A stretch of 64,000 nt of DNA from Squalus acanthias. Its lineage: Eukaryota. The notes beneath the pieces are model-generated. The model was not told the origin of the DNA and made no database searches. It saw nothing but the letters and a program-made list of their open reading frames with translations. Shown here in pieces: positions 310 through 63,048 of the stretch (position 1 is the stretch's first letter; each line of letters starts with the position of its first letter). The position numbers and the translations under genes are program-made. The stretch spans positions 28,768,001 through 28,832,000 of the forward strand of contig CM059438.1 in assembly GCA_030390025.1 (NCBI GenBank). Direction: 5' to 3'.

Positions 310-665
310 ATAAGGCTTAAGTCAGGAGTGTGATAAAATACTCACCACTCATCTGGAACAGTGCAGCTGCAACAACACTCAAAAAGCTCGACACCATCCA
401 GGATGAGCAGTCCGTTTCATCTGCGGCCTACCACTAAACTCAGCATCCACCACCACCAACACCGGCATTCTATGGCTGCACTGCATACTATCTACAGGAT
501 GCAATATAACTACTCACCAAGCCTACTTCGACAGCACCTCCTCGCCCCATGACTTCTACCATCAAGAAGAACAGGAGCAGCAAGATCTTGAGAACACCAT
601 CAGCTCCAAATTCCCCTCCCATTCACGCACCATCCTGACTTGGGCGTATATCATTGTTCCTTCAT
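310..665 (+). mobile_element. Old 3' fragment of the LINE family seen at 24882-28527
   Basis: Colinear similarity to ~27985-28345 (aagctcgacaccatccagga ... ttcgacagcacctcc). Confidence 0.75.
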
Positions 666-5329: not shown

Positions 5330-7311
5330 ATGGAGAGGGTGAGAGAACGAGCTCATCACTTCACCGAGCGGGCCTTGGATGCTCTGGTTGGCGCGGTGGA
5401 GCGCAGAAGATGTATACTCTTCCCTGAGAGTGGCAGGAGGCCTTTGCCACGCGAGTTCAGAAGAGTGTGGAGGGAGGTGGCTCAGAGCGTCTCCTCCAGG
5501 AGCATGGTGCCCAGGACCCATACTCAATGCCGCAAAAAGTTCAACGACCTCACTCGGGTCGTCAGGGTCAGTGGCTTTTTCTCAATACCTCTCCATCCCT
5601 CCATCTCAACCTCACTCGATGGCCAGAGGGTCTTAAAACCCCAATGCACAACACTCATCCAACACCTATGGCCCTGTCATGAAACACACACACACATTCC
5701 ACACTTTGCATACAGTAAGGGCTATTCACCTATGGGAGGCACATCAGGCAAGACCATGGCTGCATACAGTAAGGGCTATTCACCTATGGGAGGCACATCA
5801 GGCAAGACCATGGCTGCATACAGTAAGGGCTATTCACCTATGGGAGGCACATCAGGCAAGACCATGGCTGCATACAGTAAGGGCTATTCACCTATGGGAG
5901 GCACATCAGGCAAGACCATGGCTGCATACAGTAAGGGCTATTCACCTATGGGAGGCACATCAGGCAAGACCATGGCTGTATATTTACTCAGATGCTGTCC
6001 TTTTTCTTACAGGCCAAGCTGGCGCATAATCGGAGACAGCAGCAACGGACAGGTGGAGGGCGGCCTCAGCTGCAACCCCTCAGCGATCTTGAGGAGCGCG
6101 TCCACAGGATTGTGGCAAGCCGGGTGATCGGTCCCATCGCCACTGGAGACGCCGACCCCGTTCTGGACAGCAATGGTAAGGTCATCACCTTTTTGTCCTC
6201 TGTCCTTCCACTTGTCCCTCACAACACCAGCCTTTGACACTTTCAATCCAACTTGCTAACTCGCTGCACTTATTCCTCCCTTACTGCCACCCTGTCCTCA
6301 CGCTAAAGCCACTCTTGTACCTCCCTGCTTTCAGATGGTGATTCACCAGCTGAGGAGACGGGCCCTGAAGCTGCCACTGGGAGTGAAGCTGCAGCCGAGG
6401 AGGAAGAGGAAGCCGGAGCATCAGTGCCACCCTCTCCCGAGGAAGCCCATGCCCACACTGGGAACACGCCTTCCCTGGAGGGGAGCAGGGGGGAAGGGTC
6501 TGATGAGGGTGAAGCTCCAGGACCCAGCGGGCTGCAGCAACGCCATGGGGGTAGGGAAGAACGGGGGCCTTCTCCCCAGAGGGAGAGTATGCCAGACACT
6601 CCTACTGCAATGGACGCAGAGGAGGAGCGGCTGATCGCAGAAATGAACACCCAGGCGGTGGGCATGCACACTGAGCTCATGGGTGCAGTGGGAAGGGTGC
6701 CCGAATGCATTGAGTCACTGGCAAGGAGTGTGGAGCACTTCGCTGTAGCACAGGCGGATGCCACACTAACGCTTAGTGCTGCAATTCAGTCACTGGCTGC
6801 CGTGATCCCATCTCTGACTGCTCTCATGCAGACTCAGATTGAGGCCACGCGAGCACAGACTGCTGCCAACCTCGATGGTTCGTTCACATGTCCCCGGGGC
6901 TGTCACCGCGCCGCAGCAGGCCAGCAATCTGTTCTCCAGCAGATTGCTCCGGATGCTGAAGTGCTGCCCCGTGGGAGTGCCAGTGTGTCGGGCGAGCAGG
7001 GAGTTGCTGTCCTCTCTCACGATGACAGCATTCCTGCTGCCAACACTGTCACTTCTCCACTGCACTTGCCACCGCCTGTAGGACAGACTGCTGCCGCCCA
7101 TGCAGAGTTGGTGCAGTCTGCAGCCGGGCCCTCCAGGCCCAGAACTGGTCGAGGCCGTCCTTCAGGGGCATCTGCAGTGTCAGGGTCTGACGAGCAGCAG
7201 CCTTCCACCAGCCTTGCTGCAGCCACTGAGGTCCCATTACGGAGGAGCAGTAGGGTTAGAAGGGGGGAAGTGCGCAAGGGAAGGAGATCACCCTCGAAGG
7301 GCAAAAAGTAG
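5330..7311 (+). CDS. Harbinger Myb/SANT (trihelix) DNA-binding protein; exons 5330-5566, 6013-6175, 6335-7311 (458 aa)
   Basis: FTERALDALVGAV...WREVA...RTHTQCRKKFNDL motif. GT/AG sites (AGG|GTCAGT, TTACAG|GCC, ATG|GTAAG, TTTCAG|AT) join three exons in frame without stops. Basic C-terminus. Confidence 0.85.
5708..5977 (+). repeat. Minisatellite, 5 x 54 bp, in intron 1 of the Myb gene
   Basis: gcatacagtaagggctattcacctatgggaggcacatcaggcaagaccatggct is repeated five times perfectly. Confidence 0.95.
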
Positions 7312-18486: not shown

Positions 18487-20814
18487 TATAAGAACATAAG
18501 AAATAGGAGCAGGAGTAGGCCATTCAGCCCTTTGAGCCTGCTCCGCCATTCAATGAGATCATGGCTGATCTTCTGCCTCAATTCCATTCACCGGCCTTAT
18601 CGCCATATCCCTTGATGCCCTTACTAATCAGAAATCTATCGACTTCTGTTTTGAATATACCCAATGACTGAGCCTCCACAGCCCTCTGGGGTAGAGAATT
18701 CCAAAGATTCACCACCCTCTGTGTGAAGAAATTTCTTCTCATCTCAGTCCTGAATGGCCTACCCTTTATCCTGAGGCTGTGGCCCCTGGTTCTAGACTCC
18801 CCAGCCAAGGGAAACATTCTCCCAGCATCCACCCTATCAAGCCCTGTAATAATTTTGTATGCTTCAATGAGATCCCCTCTCATTCTTCTGAATTCAAGAG
18901 AATACAGGCCTAGTTTACTCAATCTCTTCTCATATGACAGTCCCGCCATCCCAGGAATCAATCTCGTGAACCTTCGTTGCATTCCCTCTATGGCAAGTAT
19001 ATCCTTCCTTAGGTAAGGAGACCAAAATTGTACACAGTACTCCAGGTGTGGTCTCACCAAGGCCCTATATAATTGGAGTAAGACTTCTTTACTCCTGTAC
19101 TCAAATCCTCTTGTAATGAAGGCCAGCATACCATTTGCCTTCCTAATGGCTTGCTGCACCTGCACATTCACTTTCAATGACTCATGTACAAGGACACCCA
19201 GGACCCTTTGAGCGTCTGCATTCCCCAATCTTTCACCATTTAGGGAAACTCTGCCTTTCTGTTTTTTCTACCAAAGTGGATAACTTCACATTTATCCATA
19301 TTATAAACCATCTGCCATGTTCTCGCCCACTCACTGAGCCTGTCGAGATCCCCTTGAAGCCTCTTCGCATCCTCTTCGCAACTGACACTGTCACCTTGCT
19401 TTGTGTCATCAGCAAATTTGGAAATGTTACATTTATTCCCCTCATCCAAATCATTGATATAGATTGTGAATAGCTGGGGCCCAAGCACCGAACCTTGCGG
19501 TACCCCACTAGTCACAGCCTGCCATCCTGAAAAAGACCCGTTTATCCCTACTCTTTGTTTTCTGTCTGTTAACCAATTCTCAATCCATGCTAGTATATTA
19601 CCCCCAATTCCATGTGCCCTAATTTTGTTCACCAACCTCTTGTGTGGGACCTTATCGAAGGCCTTCTGAAAATCCAAATACATCACATCTACCGGTTCCC
19701 CTTTTGTCTACTCCACTAGTTACATCCTCAAAGAACTCCAATAGGTTTGTCAAACAGGACTTCCCTTTCATAAATCCATGTTGACTCTGCCCAATCTTAC
19801 TATTAGTTTCTAAGTGCCCAGTTATTGCATCCTTTATAATAGATTCCAGCATTTTCCCAACTACTGATGTGAGGCTAACAGGTCTGTAGTTCCCCGTTTT
19901 CTCTCTCCCTCCTTTCTTAAATAGCGGGGTTACATTTGCTATCTCCAATCTGCAGGAACCGTTCCAGAATCTATAGAATTTTGGAAGATGACAACCAATG
20001 CGTCCACTATCCCAATGGCCACCTTTTTCAAAACCCTAGGATGTAGGTCATCCGGGCCTTGAGATTTATCAACTTTTAGTCCCATTAATTTTGCTAGTAC
20101 TGTTTTTTTACTAATAATAATTTCTTTAAGTTCCTCATTCTCACCACACCCTTGGTTATCTCTTATTTCTGGGAGGTTTTTATGTGTCTTCCTCCGTGAA
20201 GACAGAAACAAAGTATTTATTTAATTTCTCCGCCATTTCCTCATTCCCCATTATAAATTCTCCTGTCTCTGACTGTAAAGGACCTACATTTACCTTCGCC
20301 AGTCTTTTCCTTTTCCTTTTTATATTTTTCGCTAGTTTGTGCTCATATTCCATTTTCCCTTTCTTTATCAATTTCTTGGTCCCCCTTTGCTGATTTCTAA
20401 AAAGATCCCAATCCTCAGGCTGACCGCTTTTTCTGGCAACTTTATAAGCTTCCTCCTTTGACTTAATACTAGCTTTAATTTCTTTTGTTAGCCATGGTTG
20501 GATCACTTTTCCTTTTGGGTTTTTATGCCCTCGAGGAATATATGTTTGTTGCAAATTATGCATTATTTCCTTGAATGTTAGCCATTGTATGTCCACCTTC
20601 ATACCTTTTAGTGTAGTCTCCCAATCTACCATGGCCAACTTGTCCCTCATACCCTTGTAGTTTCCTCTGTTTAGATTGAAGACCTTAGTTTCAGATTGGA
20701 CTACATCACTCTCAAACTTAATATAAAATTCAATCATATTATGGTCACTTGTCCCTAAAGGCCCCTTTACCACAAGATTATTGATTAGCCCTTTCTCATT
20801 ACACAGTACCAGAT
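18487..20814 (-). mobile_element. CR1 LINE, 5'-truncated (ORF2 from end of EN through RT to the 3' tail)
   Basis: SDHN, YLDFQKAFDKVPH, GVPQGSVLGP, KFADD and RPHLEYCVQFWSP motifs, several frameshifts, CR1 tail. Confidence 0.95.
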
Positions 20815-21907
20815 AGAGGTACTGAAAAGGTATGTATTTTTTTCAGTTACAGCACTCTGGATGGTTGCGGCTGGAGGGCTTCTGCCTGCTGTGTTTTGAG
20901 AGCAAGCTCTGATGTTACCGCAGCAGTATACTTTCCTCCCCTGCTCTGGGTGCAGGGACATTCCTACATTGGGGAAATGCCAGGCTAAAGCAAGTAGTCT
21001 GAATCTGGAAACGTCCGGGGTCAGATCAGGTCAGGTGGAGCACGTTGCAACGAAAATTGGCCCACGAGAGTGATGCATCTGAGTTTCCTTCGGTCGAATT
21101 CATGACTTGTGAATTTGATAATCTTACCAGACAAAAAGAAAATGGCCCATCATTGTGTACCAACAATGATGGTCATTTCATATTTTTTAAACAGCTAACG
21201 AGCTACTTAATCAGTATTTCTTCTGAATGATCTGTAAATACAGCTATGCATTGAGAAAATAAGAATGCTGAAGCGGTGTTACCTTGGGCCCCAACTTTCT
21301 GACTGTGACCTTACAATCCTTCTTGATGGGCTCAATGAAAAACAGTATGGCCTTCTCAATACCAGATCAAGTTTGCTGTCTGGCTCTGAATATGTGAGCA
21401 GGTCAACACTGCTGCTGAAACCAAAAGGACTTGGAAGCAGGTTAGGAAGAAGCACCACCACTTCAAGATAGCCATTAAGGTAATGCAGAAATGAAACTTA
21501 AGAATGATTATAAGCACAAATTTGAAATTGACAGCTTAAGGAATTCCAAACATAGGCATCAGAAACTGCAGTCTTGAACTGACACATTTATAATTAAGAA
21601 TGATGTCCTGATGAAGGTAAAAGTTTTTGAACTTGCGTTGTGCATGTCATGACAGTACAGGTACTCTAATACAGCATTATGAGAGTCTTGCTGAATGGGC
21701 TCTGCTATGATATCCACTCATCGCTATTACACGAAAAAGGGGCATTCAAAAAGTGGGTGCACAGTGACGCTGGATGGGACCCAAACATAATGAAGCTCCT
21801 GGAAACCTTTTTAAAAAAAGATCATTAACATGGAAATTTTTGAAGGCACTCCACTTGAGGAAGTGGGAGGAAGGCGTGCACCAACTAGTAAGTACAAAAA
21901 TTCATAG

Positions 21908-22892: not shown

Positions 22893-23362
22893 TGAGTGTA
22901 AATGGTTGTTGGAGGCCAATCATCTCAGCCCCAGGATATCACTGCAGGAGTTCCTCAAAATAGTGTCCTAGGCCCAACCATCTTCAGCTGCTTCATCAAT
23001 GACCTTCCCTCCATCATAAGATCAAAAGTGGGGATGTTCGCTGATGATTGCACAGTGTTCAGTTCCATTCTCAACTCCTCAGATAATGAAGCACTCTATA
23101 CCTGCATGCAGCAAGACCTGGACGACATTCAGACTTGGGCTGATAAGTGGCGAGTAACATTCACACCACAGAAGTGCCAGGCAATGACCATCTCTAAAAA
23201 GAGAGAGTCTAGCCACTTCCCCTTGACATTCAACAGGATTACCATCGCCGAATCCCCCACCATCAACATCCTGGGGGTTACCATTAACCAGAAACTTAAT
23301 TGGACCAGCCACATAAATACTGTGGCTACAAGAGCAGGTCAGAGGCTGGGTATTCTGCAGAG
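22893..23362 (+). mobile_element. RT fragment of the LINE family at 24882-28527
   Basis: AGVPQNSVLGP, MFADD; highly similar to ~27480-27945. Confidence 0.9.
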
Positions 23363-23900: not shown

Positions 23901-24881
23901 TTCTTAAATCATTGGCCTTTTTTAATCTTGTGGATTATAGATATCAATTTATATTATGCTAAGTTGTTGATAGAAATTGGTGTCGAGCGGTTAACTTGTA
24001 AAGTCAGTTAATGTGTTGTAGTTTTATTGAAAGGAAGTCTCCAGTAATTATTTTGCTTAGTGTAAGTAAAATCAGAAATGTGTTTTAATCAACATTTATA
24101 ATGCAAACTATCTAATCAGTTATTTGAACTTAAAGCTTTGGGCTTTTAGGTTGGAACCTAATCATAAACCTGGTATTAATATTGCCTGGACCATTTGATT
24201 ATGAAATAATATGAAATGCAATTTCTTGAAGTCTACTTTGAGTATAAGAGGAGAAAAAACGATTTCAAAAATTTCTTAATTATGATCAACATTATACAAT
24301 ATCATGAAAGGAGTATTATTTTACATTGAATGAGAAATTACCACTTTACCTAAACCTTATTCCTGCAAAACGAAAACCATTATTATCTATCAGCTGCAGA
24401 AAATCTATTGAATTATATACATATATATGAGAAAAGGTAATGAGATACATGGTGTGTACAGCTTGGTTTCAAATAATGAAATGTTTGTTATATTAAATAT
24501 TCAAATAGTACCAGAGACAAGAGCGATTAATTTACACTTGTAACCTGCAATTTTACTGAAGCTAATAACAGTTCATCTTACAAAGCAATCACCTCCAGGT
24601 AAGAAAATAAGTGACAGTTTTTCTCTTCATTTTACAACAGAACTACATGGAATTACATAGCCAGTGCAATAGTAAAGCATAAATAACTTTTTTCATTGTC
24701 ATTCTTCATTGAAATGGAAGATATATATAGCTGTGGGTCAATGTGTATGATGAGAAAAGTACAGAAACCAAAATCAAAAATTGATAACCACAGTGGGCAA
24801 GGGTATGAATTATGGATGGTATGTAGTCATTGCAGTAAAAAAATGTACAGTAAGCACTTTATATTCATAATGATTCTTCAA

Positions 24882-27800
24882 GGGAACGATAGCGTAGTGG
24901 TAATGTCACTGGGCGAGTAATCCAGAGGCCTGGACTAATGATCCAGAGACGTGAGTTCAAATCCCACTACGGCAGCTGGGGAATTTAAATTCAGTTAATT
25001 AAATAAATCTGGAATAAAAAAGTTACTATCAGTAATGGTAACCATGAAACTATCGGATTGTTGTAAAAACCTATCTGGCTCACTAATGTCCTTTAAGGAA
25101 GAAAATCTGCCATCCATACCTGGTCTGGCCTATATATGTGGTTGACTCTTAACCGTCCTCTGAAATGGCCCAGCAAGCCACTCAGTTGTAACAAACCGCT
25201 ACGAAACAAAATAATAAGAAAGAAACTGGATGGACCACACGGCATCGACCTTGGCTACGGACACGGCAATGGCACACCCAGCCCAGTCAACCCTGCAAAG
25301 TCCTCCTCACCAACATCTGGGGACTTGTGCCAAAATTGGGAGAGCTGTCCCACAGACTAGTCAAGCACCAGCCTGACATAGTCATACTCACAGGATCATA
25401 CCTTTCAGCAATATCCCAAACTCCTCCATTACCATACCAGGGGTGGTGGCACAGTGGTATACAATCGTGAAGAAGTGGCCCTGGGAGTCCTCAACATTGA
25501 CTCCGGATCCCATGAAGTCTCATGGCTTCAGGTCAAGCATGGGCAAGGAATCCTCCTGCTGATTACCACCTACTGCCCTCCCTCAGCTGATGAATCAGTA
25601 CTCCTCCATGTTGAACACCACTTGGAAGAAGCACTGAGAGTAGCAAGGGCACAGAATGTACTCTGGGTGGGGGACTTCAATGTCCACTACTGACTGAGCT
25701 GGCCGAGTCCTGAAGAACATAACTGCCAGTCTGGGCCTGTGACAGGCGGTGAGAGAACCAACACGAGAGGAAAAACCTACTTGACCTCGTCCTCACCAAT
25801 CTACCTGTCGTAGATGCATCTGCCCATGACAGTATTCGTAGCAGTGACCACCGCACAGTCATTGTGGAGATGATGTCCCGTCTTCACACTGAGGACACCC
25901 TCCATCGTGTTGTGTGGCACTACCACGGTGGCATAGTGGTTAGCACTGGTGCCTCACAGCGCCAGGGACCCGGGTTCGAATCTGACCTCGGGTGACTGTC
26001 TGTGTGGAGTTTGCACATTCTCCCCGTGTCTGCGTGGGTTTCCTCCGGGTGCTCCGGTTTCCTCCCACAGTCCAAAAATGTGCGGGTTAGGTTGATTTGG
26101 CTATGATAAATTGACCCTTAGTGTTAGGGGGGGATTAAATATGTGGGGTTATGGGGATAGGATGGGATATGTTAGGGGGAATTAAATACGTGGGGTTACG
26201 GGGGTAGGGTGGGATATGTGTACTGTGGGGATTAAAGCAGGGACAGGGTACTGGATTTGGATGATCAGCCATGATCGTATTGAATGGTGGAGCAGGCTCG
26301 ACGGGCCGAATGGCCTACTCCTGCTCCTAGATTCTATGTTTCTATGTTTCTATGTTTCTATGTTTACCACCGTGCTAAATGGGATAGATTCAGAACAGAT
26401 CTAGCAGCTCAAAACTGGGCATCCATGAGGCGCTGTGGGCCATTAGCAGCAGCAGAATAGTATTCCACCACAATCTGTAACCTCATGGCCCGGTATATCC
26501 CTCACTCTACCATTACCATCAAGCCAGGGGACCAACCCTGGTTCAATAAGGAGTGTAGAGGAGCAGCACCAGGCATACCTAAAAATGAGGTTCCAACCTG
26601 GGGAAGCTGCAACACAGGACGACGTGCATGCTAAAAAGCGGAAGCAGCATGCTATAGACAGGGCTAAGCGATCCCACAATCAATGGATCAGGTCAAAGCT
26701 CTGCAGTCCTGCCACATCCAGTCGTGAATGGTGGTGGACCATTAAACAACTAATGGGTAGGAGGAGGCTCCATGAATATCCCCATCCTCAATGATGGTGG
26801 AGCCCAGCACGTGAGTGCAAAAGACAAGGCTGAAGCGTTTGCAACCATCTTCAGCCAGAAGTGCCAACTGGATGATCCATATTGGCCTCCTCCTGAGGTC
26901 CCCACCATCACAAAAGCCAGTCTTCAGCCAATTTGATTCACTCCACGTGATATCAGGAAATGGCTGAGCGCACTGGATACAGCAAAGGCTATGGGTCCTG
27001 ACAGCATCCCGGCTATCGTGCTGAAGACTTGTGCTCCAGCCTCTAGCCAAGCTGTTCCAGTACAGCTACAACACTGGCATCTATCCGACAATGTGGAAAA
27101 CTGCCCAGGTATGTCCTGTCCACAAAAAGCAGGACAAATCCAATCCGGCCAATTACCGCCCCATCAGTCAACTCTCAATCATCAGCAAAGTGAAGGAAGG
27201 TGTGATCGACAGTGCTATCAAGGGGCACTTACTCACCAATAACCTGCTCACTGATGCCCAGTTTGGGTTCCGCCAAGACCACACAGCTCCTGACCTCATT
27301 ACAGCCTTGGTCCAAACGTGGACAAAGGAGCTGAATTCCAGAGGTGAGCTGAGTGACTGCACTTGACATCAAGGCAGCATTTGACCGAGTGTGGCATGAA
27401 GGAGCCCTAGTAAAACTGAAGTCAATGGGAATCGGGGGGAAAACTCTCCACTGGCAGGAGTCAAACCTAGCACAAAGGAAGATGGTTGTGGTGATTGAAG
27501 GTCAATCATCACAGCCCCAGGACATCGCTGCAGGAGTTCCTCAGGGCAGTGTCCTAGGCCCAACCATCTTAAGCTGCTTCATCAATGACCTTCCCTTCAA
27601 CATAAGGTCAGAAATGGGGATGTTCGCTAATGACTGCACAGTGTTCAGCGCCATTCACAACTCCTCAGATAATGAAGCAGTCCATGCCCGCATGCAACAA
27701 GACTTGGACGACGTTCAGGCTTGGGCTGATAAGTGGCAGGTAACATTCACGCCACAGAAGTGCCAGGCAATGACTATCTCCAACAAGCGAGAGTCTAACC

Positions 27801-28527
27801 ACCACCCCTTGACATTCAATTGCATTAACATCGCTGAATCCCCTACCATCAACATCCTGGGGTCACCATTGACCAGAAAATTAACTGGACCAGCCACATA
27901 AATACTGTGGCAACAAGAGCAGGTCAGAGGCTAGGTATTCTGCGGCGAGTGTCTCACCTCCTGACTCCCCAAAGCCTTTCTACCATCTACAAGGCACAAG
28001 TATGGAGTGTGATGGAATACTCTCCACTTGCCTGGATGAGTGCAGCTCCAACAACATTCAAGAAGCTCGACACCATCCAGGACAAAGCAGCCCGCTTGAT
28101 TGACACCCCATCTACCACCTTAAACATTCACTCCCTCCACCACCGGCGTGCTGTGGCTGCAGTGTGTACCATCTACAAGATGTACTGCAGCAACTCGCCA
28201 AGGCTTCTTCGGCAGCACCTCCCAAACCCGCGACCTCTTCCACCTAGAAGGAAAAGGGCAGCAGGCGCATGGGAACACCACCACCGCCAAGTTCCCCTCC
28301 AAGTCACAAACAATCCTGACTTAGAAGTATATCGCCGATCTTTCATCGTCGCTTGGTCAAAATCCTGGAACTCCCTCCCTAACAGCACTGTGGGAGTACC
28401 TTCACCACACGGACTGCAGCGGTTCAAGAAGGTGGCTCACCACCACCTTCTCAAGGGCAATTAGGGATGGGCAATAAATGCTGGCCTTGCCAGCGACGCC
28501 CACATCCCATAAATGAATTTAAAAAAA
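24882..28527 (+). mobile_element. Near full-length single-ORF APE-RT LINE with a tRNA/SINE-like 5' head (degenerate; clade not assigned)
   Basis: Head with A box tagcgtagtggt and B box gagttcaaatc. EN motifs LTNIWGL, PDIVILT, GDFN and SDH. RT motifs LDIKAAFDRVWH and GVPQGSVLGP. Tail gcaataaatgctggccttgccagcgacgcccacatccc followed by an A run. Confidence 0.85.
25927..26364 (+). mobile_element. V-SINE inserted in the LINE
   Basis: Reverse complement of 1265-1688, with a TACCAC duplication at 25921 and 26365. Confidence 0.9.
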
Positions 28528-30865
28528 GATTGAGTTCAAAATATATAGTTAAAAGGAAATAATTTCAGGCTCCTATTTCATCACAGTAAATTTGTGTATT
28601 AAATGTAAACAGAATTATCCGTCTGCAACTTGTGCATGAAATATTAACCGTGACAAAGTAAAATTCCCTTTCATATATCTTCACTCTGTTGAATAGCAGT
28701 TGGAGAATTCACCCTAAAGACTACATTTTCCCTTTGTGTTCGGCTTTCACTTTGCTTTTACTTTTCCTAAAGGTTTGTCTTTTTGAGAATTGTAGGATCT
28801 GATGATAGGCTAATAACTTTTAGATTAATGGACTGGCTGAATATTTGCTTGTTCAGGATGGAATTTGTTATTGAGGAGTCTAGTTTTACTGCATAGTGTA
28901 GTTCTTTAAAGACCAAGATTATTGAATCCACATTTGTCAGTTGTTACCTAAGCACTTCTGTCGGATTTCTGATGAAAAATTAATAGTGAAAGCACATAAA
29001 CCCAAACAAACTGTTTTGTTATTATTTCCCTGGAGCCCATTGCCATTATTTAGGACCTGTTGGATCTTACTTTTGTTAAGTAGAGTCATTTTTCACAGTA
29101 ATTATCAATATATCATTGAAGCAATTATGCAACTACTGATTTCATTATTTTGGTTATCTCCTAACTTTATATTTCCTGTTGTGATTTCTTCCTAAAATGA
29201 TTAATATCACGAGTGAAAATGCAACCACTTTTCTAAATTGCATCTTGTGACATTATTGAGTTTTGTTAGGGCATTAGTGATACTTATCACTGCTACTATC
29301 GTCACGCAAAGCAATCTGAATTTCAGTCACAAAATGCCCCCTCATCTACAGCACGATATAGTTCCGATCTCTGCACACAAATCCAAGCCTTTGAAATTCA
29401 ATCATTCTGACTATAAATATTATAATTTTCTGGATTTATATACTCTGGGGAAATTTTCTGATGATCCTACATAGTCATTACTAACAAGTCAGTGGCTGTT
29501 CCTAAGCTGACTCAGATATATGGCTTCAACGTGACGAAGTGGAGCACATTAACTTTACTGTTCTTTTTTAAGTTCATTAATTGCTATGCTTTTGTCTTTC
29601 ATAATATATAAACCTGGAAATTACTGCAAATGATGTTATTATATGATTTCTTACTATGCTTGTATCAAATTGTTCTCTGCTATTTTAGTGGAAACTTCAG
29701 TCTGTTCATTCTAAATGTGTTGATGCCTCTATTTAGATAGCGGAGAGAGGAATTTGATTTGCTCCTTTTAAACATTTGTATGCTAACATCACTCATAGTC
29801 ACTTCCAACCTGTAATCCCATAAAGTCAATCAAATGTTTTTAATTCACCGAAATGCTATGGGGCTAATTTTCCTGCTTCGCTCCTCCCATGCCTGGACAC
29901 TAGTCAGGTGGAGTGCACCTAAAATCCACTCTGTCTGAAATGAGCTGAAATCTCAAATACAGTCCAGTGCACCCCAGGCACAGACCTGCCCATCGGCCCA
30001 GCCTTGAGCCTGGCAAAGCAAAAATACAGCTGCCGCTGCAGACCTCCGAGGGCTGCAGCAGTGGCAATGGCTGCTGACGTTAGGGCACTCTGACTGTTGC
30101 CCTGCTATCTTTGAACAAAATATTCTTAGCTGCCTGCCACTCTCCGATCCTCTGATCAAAGCAGGGCTGGGCATAGGGCCAGACCCACTTCTGTTGGGTG
30201 CCCTTCAAAGTGACTCATCTTCTTTGTTTTGGGATGGAAAATTGGGTGGAAGTCCTCCTTCTGCCTCATTACTATGCCTGTCCTTTGCTTCCCCCAGCTG
30301 CAGGTGCAAGCACTCTGCCCACTCTTAGCGAAACTACAGAAATCCATGCCCTTCTTTTCCCCTGCTTTGCTCCTGAGAATTGAGAGATCCTCAGCTACAC
30401 TGGACACGATAATTATGCTTGATGTCCTCCAAAAGGCCCTTAGGGATATAAGAGAAAATAAGGCTTGATTATAAGCAAGATGAAAGACAATTGACTGTAC
30501 AACATTTACAAGCAAGTTAATCTCTCAGAAACAATTATTTATAGAAAGAATAATAGATTTATTAGATGCTATCTGTCAATAATACTCATAGAATTGCACG
30601 ATCACTATATATTGTAAATGTGAATAGAATTTTAATAACAGGAAAAGACCTGTAGCTCCAATAAGCCTGTTGCTTTCTGATAGAATAATCTCAACTTCTC
30701 ATCATATTTCTCACTCCCCAATTCTCTCTCCAGAAACACATCTTATTGTCTCTTGAACCCATTTATAATGTTTGCAACCATTGTTTTTCTTATTCATTTA
30801 TTCTACAAGTCTATTATCCTCTGGCTGTAAATCTTCCACTTGATTTCCCTTTGTCCTAACTTACT

Positions 30866-31030: not shown

Positions 31031-33645
31031 GTATTAAATGTGCATTGTGAAGCTGTATCTAGGATTGTGAAACTATTATGTTAATGTGACAATGACAAAA
31101 CTGCTGGAGCTCTTCTAGACTCTTCCCCTCACCAACACATTTAAAAATCCTGGCTTGATTTTGACTCTGTTACTTCTAAACATTTCCAGTTTGGGAATTT
31201 GGACTGTTGATGAAGTAAGACTTAAATTGATTATTATAATCTGCCTATTGTGCTAATTTTAGAGGAGAGTCCTATCTGTAAGTAAATGCATGTAAAATTG
31301 TTTTTAGGTGTCAAGGAAGTGCATTTAAATTGTTGTGGGATTAAACTTGCCCACTGAAATGAACGCACGTTCCTAAATTAAATTCTGTTGGTGAAATTAT
31401 TCCCTCTAAACTGTGAAGCAGTTGGTTGGAGGGATTAGAACAGTTTAATGTTAATGAGTGCGCCAATGAACTTTCCCTGCTTTTGATAAAATAACAGCTA
31501 GACATACGTGCTGTTTCTTTTCTTGCATATTCCTATGAACTTTAGAAGTAAGGTTAGAGCACTTCATTAAGGTTATACACAGAAGGGTGGTGAGGGATAC
31601 AGCTTGAGTTAGTGAGCAGCAATTCCTGTTGGAGGCAACTTCCAATCCAGGATTCAGAGTGAAAGTGCCAGAAAGAATCCAAATAAAGGGCAGACTTATC
31701 TATTGTGGAGATTAGCCAGAAGCCAATAATCCCCTTGTAGTACCTTCTTGGAATGGTAGAAAGAAACTGCATAACAGTGTTCGGAGATGATTGCTCGGCA
31801 TTTGTTGCTTACTTTGTACATCAAAGAAAGCTTTTGTAATTAATGTAATGCACTTTTAGCTATTGACATTATAAGAACATAAGAATTAGGAGCAGGAGTA
31901 GGCCATTCGGCCCTTCGAGCCTGCTCCACTATTTAATAAGATCATTGCTGATCTTCTACCTCAACTCCACCCTCCCGCCCTATCCCCATATCCCTTGATT
32001 CTTTGAGTACCCAAAAATCTATTGATCTCTGTCTTGAATATACTTAACGACTGAGCATCCACAGCTCTCTGGGGTAGAGAATTCCAAAGATTCACAATCC
32101 TTTGAGTGAAGAAATTTCTCTTCATCTCAGTCCTAAATGGCCAACCTCTGCTTCTGAGACTATGACCCCTAGTTCTAGACTCCCTAGACAGGGGAAACAT
32201 CCTCCCAAAATCTACCCTGTCAAGCCCTTCAAGAATTTTATATGTTTCAATGGGATCACCTCTCATTCTTCTAAACGCTAGAGAATATAGGCCTAGTCTA
32301 CTCAATCTCTCCTAATAGGACAATCCTCCCATCCCAGGAACCAGTCTGGTGAATATTTGTTGCACCCCCTCTAAGGCAAGTATATCCTTCCTTAGGTAAG
32401 GAGAACAAAACTGTACATAGTGCTCCAAGTGTGGTCTCACCAAAGCCCTATATAATTGTAGTAAGACCTCTTTACTCTATACTCCAATCCCTTTGTAATA
32501 AAGGCTAACATACCATTTGCTTTCCTAATTGCTTACTGTACCTGGAATCTGTGATTCGTGTACAAGGACACCCAGGTCCCTCTGAATAAGAACATTTCCC
32601 AGTCTCTCACCATTTAAAAAATATTCTGCTTTTCTACTTTTCCTAAGTCTTTGATATAGATTGTAAATAGCCATGGCCCAAGCACTGATCCTCGCGGTAC
32701 CCCACTAGTTACAGCCTGCCAACCTGAAAATGACCCATTTATTCCTACTCTCTGTTTTCTGTCCATTAAGCAATCCTCAATCCATGCTAATATATTACCT
32801 CCCAAACCCCATGAGCCCTAATTTTGTGTAATAACCTCTTGTATGGCACCTTATCGAAAACTTTTTGAAAATCAAAATACATTGCATCCACTGGTCCCCC
32901 CCTATCTACCCTGCTAGTTACAACCTCAAAAAACTCTTAATAGATTTGTCAAATAAAATTTCCCTTTCATAAATCTGTGTTGACTGCCCAATCAAATTAT
33001 GATTTTCTAAGTGCCCTGTTACCATGTTCCTAATAAGTTTTAGCATTTCCCCTACTACTGAGGTCAGGCTAACTGGTCTATAGTTCCCTGTCTTCTCTCT
33101 CCCTCCTTCCTTGAATGGCAGGGTTATGTTTGCTACCTTCCAATGCATGGGAACCATTCAAGAATCTAGGGAATTCTGGAAGATCAAAACCAATGCATCC
33201 ACTATCTCTGTAGTTACCTCTTTTAAAACCCTGGGATGTAGGCCAACAGGTCATGGGGATTTGTTGACTTTTAGTCCCATTAATCTCTCCAGTACAATTT
33301 CTTTACTAATATTAATTTCTTTAAATTTCTCATTCTCCACTATTTCCGGAATGTTATTTGTGTATTCTACCGTGAAGACAGATACAAAGTATTCGGTTAA
33401 TGTCTCAGCCATTTCCTTATTCCCCATTATAATTTCTCCTGTCTCTGCTTCTAAGGGACCCACGTTTACTTTTGTTAATCTCTTCCTTTTTACATATCTA
33501 TAGAAGCTTTTACAATTCGGTTTTATGTCTCTTGCTAGTTTACTCTCATATTCTCTTTTCTATTTCTTTATCAATTTCTTGGTCATCCTTTGCTTAATTC
33601 TAAAATCATCTCAAATTCAGCCTTAGTACTCTTTTTGGCAACAAT

Positions 33646-34402: not shown

Positions 34403-35236
34403 ATTATAAGCCTCATCCTTTAATCTAATACTATATTTAACTTCCCTTGTTAGCCACAGTTGGACTACTAATCCCGTGGGGTTTTTATTCGTTAGAGGAA
34501 TGTAAATACATTGCGAATTATGAATTCATTCTTTAAATGTTTGTCATTGCTTATCTACTATCATATCTTTTAGTGTAGTTTCCCAAACTACCTAAGCCAA
34601 CTCGTCCCTCATACCTACGTAGTTTGCTTCGTTCAGAGTTAAGACCCAAGTTTCGGCCTTAACTAAATCACTCTCAAACTCAATATAAAATTCTATCATA
34701 TAATGATCACTCTTCCCCAGAGGCTCCTTGACTACAAGCTTATAATTAACCCCTTTTCATTGCGCAATACTAGATCTAAAATAGCCTGTTCCCTAGTTGG
34801 TTCCTCTACATACTGATCTAGAAAACTAACTTGAATACATTCCATGAACTTGTCCTCCACAGTATTACTGCAAATTTGGTTTGCCCAGTCTATATGAAGA
34901 TTAAAGTCCCCCATGATTACTATATTACCCTAGTTACATGCGCCTGTAATTTCCTGATTTATACACTGTCCGACAATAGAACTACTGTTTGGGGGGCCTA
35001 TAAGCTACTCCCACCAGTATTTTCTGCCCCTTGTTGTTTCTTAGCTCCACCCAAACTGATTCTACATCTTGATTTTCTGAGTTAAGATCCTTTCTCTATA
35101 CTGTCTTTATCCTTCCTTTATTATCAGGGCTAACCCCCCCACCCCACCCAACCTCTCCTTTACAATTTTACCTATGTCCTCTAAAATCAAGTATCTTGGA
35201 ATTTTTAGTCCCCAACCTTGGTCACTCTGCAACCAC

Positions 35237-38094: not shown

Positions 38095-38545
38095 CAACAA
38101 TAACTTGCATTAATATACGTCTTTAATGTAGTAAAACATCACAAGGCGCTTCAAAGGAGCATTATGAATAAAAATTTGACACCGAGTCACATATGGTGAT
38201 ATTAGGGCAGATATTCAAAGAGGTAGGTTTTAAGGAGCGTCTTAAAGGAGGAAAGAGGGGTAGAGAGGTGGAGAGGTTTAGGCAGGGAATTCCAGAGCTT
38301 GGGGCCTTGGCAGCTGAAGGCACGGCCACCAATGGTGGAGTGATTATAATCGGGGATGCGCAAGAGGCTAGAATTGGAGGACCGCAGATACCTCAGAGGG
38401 TTGTAGGGCTGGAGGAGTTTACAGAGATAGAAAGGGGGGTGAGACCATGGAGGGATTTGAAAACAAGGATGAGTATTTTAAAATTAAAGCGTTGCTCAAC
38501 CGAGAGTCAATGTAGGTCAGCAAGCACAGGGGTGATGGGTGAACA
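38095..38545 (-). mobile_element. L2-type LINE 3' fragment
   Basis: Tail caacaataacttgcattaatatac...aaggcgcttca. The minus strand reads as an L2-like ORF end (WNSLP). Family assignment from recall. Confidence 0.65.
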
Positions 38546-49663: not shown

Positions 49664-52600
49664 AAGAACATAAGAACTTAAGAAATAGGAGCAGGAGTAG
49701 GCCATTTGGCCCCTCGAGCCTGCTCTACCATTCAATAAGATCATGGCTGATCTTCTACCTCAACTCCACTTTCCTGCACTATCCCCATATCCCTTGATTC
49801 CCTTAATATCCAAAAATCTATCGATCTCTATCTTGAATATACTCAACGACTGAGCCTCCACAGCCCTCTGGGGTAGAGAATTCCAAAGATTCACCACCCT
49901 CTGAGTGAAGATGTTTCTCCTCATCTCAGTCCTAAATGGCCGACCCCTTATTCTGAGATTGTGACCCCTGATTCTAGACTCCCCAGCCAGGGGAAACATT
50001 CTCCCTGCATCTCTTCTTCTTAGGCAGTCCCTCGGAACCGAAGATGACTTGCTTCCACATTAAAAATGAGTTCTCAGGTGACTGATGAGTCCAATGCGGG
50101 ACCTACAGTCTCTGTCACAGGTGGGGCAGACGGTGGTTGAAGGGGCGGGTGGGTGGGGTGCTTGGGTTGACGTGCGCTCCTTCTGCTGTTTGTGCTTGGC
50201 TTCCGCTTGCTCCCGGCGAAGAGACTCAAGGTATTCGGCGCCTTCCCGGATGCTTCTCCTCCACTTTGTACGGTCTTGGGCCAGGGATTCCCAGGTGTCG
50301 GTGGGGATGTTGCACTTTTTCAAGGAGGCTTAGAGGGTGTCCTTGAAGCGTTTCCTCTGCCCACCTGGGGCTCTCTTGCCGTGTTGGAGCTCCGAGTAGA
50401 GCGCTTGTTTTGGGAGTTTCGTATCGGGCATGCGGACGATGTGACCCGTCCATCGGAGCTGATCGAGCGTGGTCAAAGCTTCGATGCTGGGGATGTTGGC
50501 CTGAGCGAGAACACTAACGTTGGTGCGCCTATCCTGCCAATGGATTTGCAGGATCTTGCGGAGGCAACATTGGTGGTACTTCTCCAGTGCTTTGAGGTGC
50601 CTGCTGTACATGGTCCATGTCTCTGAGGCATACAGGAGGGCGGGTATTACTACTGCTCTGTAGACCATGAGCTTGGTGCCGGGTTTGAGGTCCTGGTCTT
50701 CAAACACTCTCTTCCTCAGGCGACCGAAGGCTGCACTGGCACACTGAAGGCGGTGTTGGACTTCGTCATCGACGTCTGCCCTTGTTGACAGTAGGCTCCC
50801 GAGGTATGGAAAGTGGTCCACGTTGTCCAAGACCTTGTCATGGATTTTGATAATGGGGGGGCAGTACTGTGTGGCGGGGGCAGGTTGTTAGAGGACCTTT
50901 GTCTTACGGATGTTTAGTGTAAGGCCCATGCTCTCGTACGCTTCGGTGAAGGTGTTAACGATGGTTTGGAGTTCAACCTCCGAGTGTGCGCAGACGCAAG
51001 CGTCGTCTGCATACTGTAATTTGAAAACAGAGGAAGGGACGACCTTGGATCTGGACTGGAGGCGATGGAGGTTGAACAGTTTCCCGTTTGTTCTGTAAAT
51101 TAGCTCCACTCCAGCGGGGAGCTTACTGAAGGTGAGATGGAGCATTGCAGCCAGGAAGATCGAGAAGAGCGTTGGTGCGATGACACAGCCTTGCTTGACC
51201 CCGGTCCTCATGACTCTTCGGCTCACCCTAGCCCGGAACCAGTGTGCTACGGTCATCAGTGCGTACGCCCCAACACTGGAAGCCACAGACGAGACCAAAG
51301 AGGAATTCTACTCCAGCCTCAAACAATCCCTGTCCCAAGTCCCAACGGGCGACAAGCTGATCCTCCTTGGCGACTTTTAATGCCAGAGTTGGAAAGGACA
51401 CAGACCTCTGGGGAGGTGTGATCGGCAGAGAGGGGGTAGGGAAAGCCAACTCCAACGGTACCCTCCTCCTGACGAAATGCTTAGAACATGGCCTTGTCAT
51501 AACCAACACCTTGTTCCGGCAGAGAGACAAGTACAAAGCTTCATGGCAGCACCCTCGCTCCAAGCAAGGCATCTGCTGGACTATGACATCGTCCGAGCGA
51601 GGGACCGCAAGGACGTCTGCATCACCCACTCCATGACAGGAGCTGACGACTGCTGGACAGACCACCGCCTAATCCGCTCTGTCATCTCCATCAATGTAGC
51701 CCAAAAACAGTGGCGGCAACAGAAACAATGCCGCAGGAAAATCAACGCTGGAGCACTGAAAGACCCCTGCTAAGAAAGCCCTATTCAGCCTGCGCCTCAC
51801 AACCAACCTGACGACTCCCAGTGATGCAGAGACACAGAGTGTCCACAGCGCCTGGTCTGCACTCAAGGCCTCCATAACCAGCACCTGTGAAGAGACGCTC
51901 GGTCACTCGACCAGGAAACACCAAGACTGGTTCGACGAGAATGACTAGGAGATCCAGGAGCTAATAAGCCGCAAACGCAAGGCAGTCCAACAAAAAACTC
52001 GTGACCTAAAGTACAGGTGGCGGGTGGAGAAAGCGCAGGAGATCCAGCAGCTAGCCGACAACCACGACGTGCGTGGATTCTTTAGCGCAGTCAAGACCGC
52101 CTACGGCCCAAGCACCCAAGGTCCTACCCCACTGTGGGTCAAGAACGCAGAGGTACTCATCAAGGACAGGGAGGCAGTCAGTGCCCGCTGGGAGGAGCAC
52201 TTTGAAGATCTCCTTAACCGAGACTCTGTCTTCGACGCGAGTGTCCTCAACTCCATCCCGCAGCATGCTACCCGCCACCATCTCAGCACAACCCAGCTCG
52301 GCATGAGGTTGAAAAGGCCATCCGACAACTGAAGAACAACAAGGCCTCAGGAGCAGATGGAATCCCTGTCGAGGCACTAAAACATGGCGGAGAAGCACTA
52401 CTGGCGCGAATTCATTAACTCATTTCTCTTATCTGGATGGAGGAGAGCATGCCAGGGGATCTCAGAGACGCCGTAATTGTGACCATCTTCAAGAAAGGTG
52501 ACAAGTCCGATTGCGGTAATTACAGAGGAGTTTCTCTGCTGTCTGCCACAGGGAAAGTCATCGCAAGAATCCTCCTCAATCGCCTTCTCCCAGTGGCTGA

Positions 52601-53125
52601 AGAGCTCCTCCCAGAGTCGCAATGCGGATTCCGCCCACTAAGGGGCACAATGGACATGATCTTCACCGCGCGCCAATTACAAGAGAAATGCAGGGAACAG
52701 CGCCAACCGCTGTACATGGCCTTCTTTGACCTCACAAAGGCTTTTGACACTGTCAACCGTGAGGGATTATGGAGTGTCCTCCTCAAATTCGGCTGCCCTC
52801 CAAAGATTGTCACCATCCTCCGCCTGCTACCCTAACAAGCTCTGTAAGAATTTTACATGTTTCAATGAGATTACCTCTCATTCTTCTAAACTCTTGAGAA
52901 TATAGGCCTAGGGTACTCAATCTCTCCTCACAGGACAATCCCCCCATCCCAGAAATCAGTCTGGTAAACTTTTGTTGCACTCCCTCTATGACAAGTATAT
53001 CCTTCCTTAGGTAAGGAGACCAAAACTGTACACAATACTCCAGGTGTGGTCACACCAGGGCCCTATATAATTGCAGTAAGACATCTTTACTATTATACTC
53101 AAATCCTCTTGTAATAAAGGCCAAA
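49664..53125 (-). mobile_element. CR1 3' fragment split by an RTE insertion (pieces 49664-50012 and 52829-53125)
   Basis: Both pieces are colinear with 18490-19125 and rejoin at gcatct|accct. Confidence 0.9.
50013..52828. mobile_element. RTE-clade LINE with 5' inversion (3' part on minus 50013-51207; inverted 5' part on plus 51208-52828)
   Basis: Plus strand: ISAYAPT, LGDFNARVG, TDH, NYRGVSLL, FDLTKAFDTV. Minus strand: GVKQGCV, QYADD, FPYLGS, C2H2 CPTC..HLRTH and a (GAA)n tail. Confidence 0.92.
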
Positions 53126-62854: not shown

Positions 62855-63048
62855 ATAGTAATCCAGAGGCCTGAAGTAATAATCTGGAGCCGTGAGTTCA
62901 AATCCCACCATGGCAGTTGTAATTCTGAATTCAGTCAATGAAATAAATCTGGAATAAAAAATTGGTTTCAGTAATGGTGACCATGAAAGCTATCGTATTG
63001 TCATAAAAACCCAACTACTTCACTAATGTACTTTACCCGTCTGGTCTG
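62855..63048 (+). mobile_element. Isolated tRNA/SINE head fragment homologous to 24915-25130
   Basis: agtaatccagaggcctg...gagttcaaatcccac...aaataaatctggaataaaaa...cactaatgt. Confidence 0.8.

Follow-up and report, generated by a model that had tools for sequence, protein, structure and literature searches.

LINEs are textbook Pol II units and SINEs are Pol III units, and the locus described here raises the question of whether a protein-coding LINE can carry, and use, the promoter of a SINE. The window, a 64,000-nt stretch of the Squalus acanthias genome, holds one decayed copy of a high-copy shark element that encodes its own copying enzyme. The original prediction held that this copy is a LINE with a tRNA-derived head and no TTTT on its sense strand, and that it may be transcribed by Pol III. 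For an element that encodes protein, Pol III use would be out of the ordinary; Pol III is reportedly able to use the human L1 promoter, according to an old report.

The window copy occupies positions 24882..28527 (+), from a GGG start at 24882 to the end of an A7 tail at 28527. Its 5′ end is a tRNA-like head (24882..24968, +), in which the A box, TAGCGTAGTGG (24890-24900, +), and the B box, GAGTTCAAATCC (24953-24964, +), lie where they had been predicted. The Rfam tRNA model matches the head weakly (24889-24968; E 0.079), its 20.8 bits falling short of the gathering score of 29, and ARAGORN calls no tRNA in it. The head is followed by a SINE-type body (24969..25188, +) that is common to the short SINEs of this genome and then by a single reading frame, located from the ORF list and Pfam. 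The first part of this frame (25192..25926, +) specifies a basic N-terminal extension and the APE endonuclease (EN) and in the window copy is interrupted by frameshifts and short deletions, while the remainder (26365..28464, +), also frameshifted here, specifies the RT domain and the C terminus up to a TAG codon. APE and RT pieces both match Pfam and ORF1 is absent from the window copy, in agreement with the predicted APE-RT frame. The two parts are separated by an unrelated nested tRNA-SINE (25927..26364, +), which ends in (CTATGTTT)n, is flanked by a TACCAC target site duplication (TSD; 25921-25926 and 26365-26370) and which we take to be of the V-SINE/HE1 type. Because this SINE is a separate insertion, missing from other copies of the LINE, the mobile unit is ~3.3 kb long and not ~3.6 kb as first read. 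A second copy, inserted in another Zenon LINE (L022/L039), shares 99.8% identity with the nested SINE, which thus belongs to a very young SINE subfamily, active now or recently. The element closes with a 3′ UTR (28465..28527, +), again common to the short SINEs, containing AATAAA (28473-28478), TTT (28518-28520) and then the A7 tail. The window also holds an older head/body fragment at 62856..63035 (+; 76% identical), which is the free head noted earlier near 62855, as well as an RT fragment (22913..23357, +; 91%) and an older 3′ ORF fragment (312..665, +; 77%) of the same Zenon family. A GC-rich region with a tandem repeat of ~53 nt lies at 5635-7302.

The element inserts as a whole, from head and body through the single APE-RT frame to the A-tail. 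When the head-ORF junction was used as a DNA query, 4,700 first-look candidates came up, the 40 scored ones lying at 92-94% if the window's own match is set aside, and an exact gapped pattern reaching from the body end to the ORF side matched the genome 1,592 times, compared with 0 for the reversed control. Among 40 copies selected through their EN protein, 10 reach the head start (first 12 nt) and the other 30 break off somewhere in the first 340 nt; these 40 have no other common 5′ end, and their upstream flanks share nothing. The A box is matched in 21 and the B box in 15 of the 23 copies that reach the 5′ end. Moreover, for 4 of 13 full-length copies both flanks adjoin in empty copies of another (host) repeat. 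The TSDs looked for around the whole unit gave no significant signal: those of full-length copies are short and do not exceed a flank-swap null (p 0.24), and the candidate 4-bp TSD of the window copy, GATT (24872..24875, repeated at 28528-28531), is not above chance. Although these short TSDs would suit chance nesting of a SINE before a truncated LINE at this locus, that explanation is rejected, with a vanishingly small residual probability, by the number of exact junction matches, the staggered truncations inside the head, the empty-site flanks and the identical junction in the consensuses of five species. The head is thus an integral, recurrent and old part of the LINE, and that the fusion is real and old we regard as practically certain. 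The family is common (about 19 of 400 kb sampled, about 5%) and the mean divergence of 42 copies from the column majority is 3.3%; no whole frame was present among 145 scored matches.

Two features of the copies deserve mention in their own right. In full-length copies (window 24876-24881; L040, L041, L043, L072), 2-9 extra bases separate the apparent TSD from the GGG; the window copy has six, between the candidate GATT and the head. These bases often end in TA(C/A) or AA; they may have been brought along from source loci as short Pol III leaders, or added without a template. In addition, among 100 of the 1,592 junction matches, linker length varies by 3, 6 or 9 nt in ~24 and by other lengths in ~13, which fits either a kept frame or simple AAT slippage.

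Sequence comparison identifies the unit as a 3.3-kb elasmobranch Zenon LINE of the CR1 group. Zenon LINEs that lack ORF1 and carry a poly-A tail have been described in elasmobranchs, the poly-A tail being unique to Zenon among CR1-group elements (PMC13343379). The window family has this tail and a single APE+RT ORF without ORF1, which in a column yardstick of 3,314 columns stays open for 973 codons after a TAA, with the head directly upstream. The absence of ORF1 is therefore borne out, but it is normal for Zenon and not the special trait it had seemed. By eye, the first 400 nt of SquAca_Zenon-1 (PMC13343379) are the same as our element almost letter for letter. The elasmobranch Zenon set in that supplement (SquAca_Zenon-1/2/3, CarCar, ScyCan, RhiTyp and HypSab_Zenon-1) likewise shows a length of 3,314 nt, no ORF1 and poly-A, and in the available part no sequence difference from the element was found. 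Within their first 400 nt, the consensuses of five species (SquAca, CarCar, ScyCan, RhiTyp and HypSab) all open with the A box, the B box, the body and the same linker. HypSab is a ray, and its Zenon consensus starts with the same head; the fusion is older than the shark-ray split. In contrast, the hagfish and coelacanth Zenon consensuses, as far as the same supplement gives them, have a different start and not this head. Among the pieces listed, contigs of three organisms (X1, X4 and X13) also bridge body and EN. A quick RT tree, containing no named Zenon references, placed the element beside invertebrate-type proteins and apart from the CR1 of this genome (support 99). Pieces of the ORF also recur, at 71-86% identity, in NCBI/UniRef shark gene models (P0003, P0009, P0023, P0024 and P0167), probably as repeat sequence absorbed into annotations. 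The words "tRNA" and "polymerase III" do not occur in the available text of PMC13343379, nor "tRNA" in the first 400 characters of its supplement cells, and our literature search, whose scope stopped short of subscription journals and Repbase reports, found no tRNA-headed or Pol III-driven coding LINE. Hence, the sequence is already published as Zenon, while its head and what the head implies were not found in the literature searched.

As predicted, there is no in-frame ATG between KVLLTNIWGL and the TAA stop at 25189-25191, and this lack is family-wide, with the first in-frame ATG of the column yardstick at column 1188, past the EN domain; initiation must therefore be non-canonical. The earlier account needs a correction here: 8 codons before the stop, at 25165, there is an in-frame ATG (25165..25191, +; MAQQATQL and a stop in the window copy). 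Simple read-through from this ATG is unlikely in this genome, where 32/46 copies have two in-frame stops after it (ATG-GCC-TAG plus TAA); the consensuses of the four other species have the TAG only. The short overlapping ORF predicted at 25136..25360 (+) is present, in the +1 frame, and a second ATG in that frame stands at the linker end in 41/46 copies (AAG in the window copy) and in the available consensuses of all five species. No canonical -1 slippery site leading out of the overlapping ORF was seen by eye, and one copy analyzed at the junction gave no stable RNA structure (z 0.17). Upstream of EN, the interspecies changes at L073 919, 928 and 958 are all (3/3) synonymous in the overlapping frame, and the published consensuses give, by eye, a mixed frame signal there. 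Just inside EN, 4/4 interspecies changes are synonymous, indicating that EN was translated. The segment ahead of EN is Arg-rich, a trait also found in some relatives of invertebrate type that have an initial Met. Non-canonical initiation in LINEs is an open question (PMC3894237), and here the route may be non-AUG initiation, reinitiation or a frame switch. The first in-frame ATG beyond EN and the paired stops after the only nearby ATG would also suit a dual arrangement, whereby Pol III makes the template RNA and the protein is supplied in trans by a few source loci, through separate transcripts that are Pol II-driven or spliced. However, an ORF carried in trans would decay, whereas the synonymous changes place the EN frame under selection in the headed lineage, and we consider this arrangement improbable.

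The absence of TTTT from the + strand of 24882-28527 proved correct (20 A4 runs are present), and the T4-free stretch around the element is the longest on the + strand of the window (4,038 nt; the next is 1,367). Zero TTTT in the window copy has P=0.001 in mononucleotide and P=0.032 in dinucleotide shuffles. In the column yardstick there are 0 TTTT, 0 TVTTT, 0 TTTVT and 1 TTVTT, compared with ~4 expected arithmetically per such motif at 20% T, while its ORF contains 12 A4, 11 C4 and 8 G4 runs. No internal TTTT is common to >3 of 42 copies, and body matches contain 29 T4 in 212 kb (~0.14/kb), including 2 in 11 kb for copies of <88% identity, versus 3.2-5.7/kb for CR1/L2 of the same genome. The observed/expected ratio of TTT is 0.28-0.38 in the element family; in the controls it is 1.27 and 1.82 for CR1 (whose control cluster contains one 588-nt RTE piece), 0.76 for L2 and 1.15 for the window RTE (T 21%), and in 48 metagenomic relatives (those long enough, out of 80 fetched) its mean is 1.14 and its minimum 0.45. 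The control fragments in the window are CR1 at 18602-20818, 31964-33598 and 34481-34926 (-) and L2 at 38214-38530 (-). The RTE LINE does contain sense-strand TTTT, as stated originally, with 6 TTTT 4-mers in 50300-52829. This decayed RTE element (about 50000-52829, +) is 94-96% identical to copies in L047, L157, L093 and L117, and a CR1 piece cuts its 3′ end.

The depletion extends into the choice of codons and residues. T at four-fold sites is 0.23 in the element and 0.24 in CR1, so it is runs that are avoided and not T itself. With CR1 codon usage the same protein would be expected to contain 4.9 T4 (P0 0.005) and with L2 codon usage 3.3 (P0 0.015). A synonymous shuffle of the element's own codons, the control on which the original prediction was to be judged, gives only 1.5-1.9 expected T4, because a low Phe content (1.9%) and a preference for TTC absorb the signal, and zero is then not significant (P 0.10-0.17). 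The ORF has the lowest T content (19.4%) when set against the 48 relatives, and Phe is lower in only 1/136 relatives, though T-poverty and Phe-poverty could have another cause. Two of the 48 relatives, with no detected head, are also T4-free over ~1.4 kb. No A+B box pattern was found upstream of relatives in the 48 metagenome loci, and ARAGORN gave no hit in 39; it also misses the window head. Within the lineage, 0/150 shared variants make a T4 (0.8 expected, too few for power), and 0/6 listed changes to T create a run of >2. The sense strand thus has no internal T4/TVTTT, the significance of which depends on the null chosen, and T-run avoidance goes beyond base composition and control LINEs. 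It is family-wide and built into codon and residue choice. It matches what Pol III passage would require, and is no proof of Pol III.

The head could be fixed in the LINE and Pol II still make the coding RNA, either with head and body as a Pol II promoter or by host read-through, with the tRNA-like fold or the body setting the 5′ end; the T-run poverty would then be a C/A-rich strand bias. The own-codon shuffle agrees with this, as do the wide variation of strand composition among LINE clades (10.1101/788562), the TTT ratio of L2 in the same genome, which is also below one at 0.76, and the general view of LINEs as Pol II units (PMC10886601, PMC5786205). An AATAAA 45 nt ahead of the A-tail is likewise as in Pol II units. 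However, four-fold T is not low, yet the depletion of TT, TTT and T4 exceeds that in every control, and the A and B boxes are at consensus in the available sequence of five species. Two AATAAA within 140 nt of the element start and the lack of any shared sequence upstream of the copies also speak against Pol II. Transcription by Pol II keeps appreciable weight as the lesser possibility, and for the coding RNA of the LINE we lean modestly toward Pol III, which the sequence evidence makes likely by a small degree.

The 3′ end carries little weight in this choice. Behind AATAAA the tail reads GAA-T(n)-A(n), with n of 1-5 or more. Hand counts gave T1 18, T2 10, T3 4, T4 4, T5 3, T0 1 and other 8 at 48 loci and T1 28, T2 3, T3 4, T5 2, T0 2 and other 13 at a second set of 52 loci; other species have mostly a single T before the A-tail. 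T length falls as A-tail length rises (rho -0.43) and is not correlated with divergence (rho -0.17, n=41), and T-runs arise within A-tails too. Such ladders can be produced by termination of Pol III and also by T elongation after insertion (PMC8466645). The T-ladder is thus ambiguous as a Pol III footprint, as post-insertion growth explains it too.

Like a SINE, the unit has a tRNA-derived head with A and B boxes, but it is neither short nor non-coding, being 3.3 kb long with an APE-RT ORF. SINE-derived pieces are also carried by the ends of Bov-B elements. A body-to-tail pattern has 622 matches in the genome, and in a hand count of the first 100 of these, three SINE junctions recur ~20, 21 and 8 times, two of which keep the last ORF codons; some short SINEs retain part of the LINE linker. 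Sharing of head and tail through several junctions fits the prediction that the short SINEs are internal-deletion derivatives of the LINE, and would point to repeated deletion. From the description in PMC5499810, we infer that the body (24969..25188) holds the Deu domain of SacSINE1. Chimaera and coelacanth have SacSINE1-like SINEs as well (PMC5499810), so the process may have started with an older SINE head being captured. Among bivalves, too, Deu-SINEs carry tails of the CR1-Zenon type (PMC11481361).

Under the Pol III reading, TFIIIC would bind the A and B boxes and Pol III would start at GGG, ~9 nt before the A box, and could cross 3.3 kb because T4/TVTTT signals have been purged, the RNA reaching the AATAAA-T(n)-A tail and ending there or further on. 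Translation of this uncapped RNA would follow the short upstream ORFs and use a non-AUG start or reinitiation; the protein would then reverse-transcribe the RNA that encodes it by target priming, often stopping short of the 5′ end. Repeated loss of the coding middle would yield ready-made SINEs that keep promoter and tail. The full scenario, a headed coding LINE that Pol III has transcribed from a time before sharks and rays split, with an ORF of 2.9 kb avoiding terminators down to its Phe content, translation free of cap and in-frame AUG, and parentage of Deu-type SINEs by simple internal deletion, is one we hold tentatively, and with somewhat less assurance than Pol III transcription by itself.

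Several known systems share parts of this design. The SacSINE1/LmeSINE1 Deu-SINEs of sharks, chimaera and coelacanth combine a tRNA head, a Deu body and a LINE tail (PMC5499810; PMC3747384), and the short elements of this genome, for which the name SacSINE1 is inferred, carry the same head, body and tail as the LINE. Deu-SINEs are non-coding, unlike the headed LINE, and in the available parts of these sources their tails are credited to L2-2_CM (78.6%, CmiSINEs) or a CR1-4_DR-like LINE and not to a LINE bearing the head and body. Lepidopteran Zenon has a single ORF and has several times given rise to a deletion derivative, Persaeus, that keeps the 5′ and 3′ ends (PMC6740152); Persaeus, as presented there, differs from the headed element in lacking both homology to tRNA and a Pol III promoter. 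The T+ SINEs B2, Dip and Ves have A and B boxes, AATAAA, a variable T-run and an A-tail as here (PMC8466645), but are short and non-coding, and in our element a single T prevails in other species and older subfamilies. Small-RNA heads are also joined to retroelement parts in SINEs on bipartite RTE/Vingi LINEs (PMC5786205) and in TRIMp3 (PMC10886601); as far as these sources go, such heads sit on non-autonomous elements only, whereas here the head is on a coding element.

If the Pol III reading is true, a high-copy coding LINE with a conserved Pol III head would break the polymerase split between LINEs and SINEs. The family would then supply a natural 3.3-kb Pol III mRNA whose cap- and AUG-independent translation is open to dissection. 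It would also offer a one-step origin of SINEs, by deletion of the ORF, which bears on the source of conserved bodies such as Deu.
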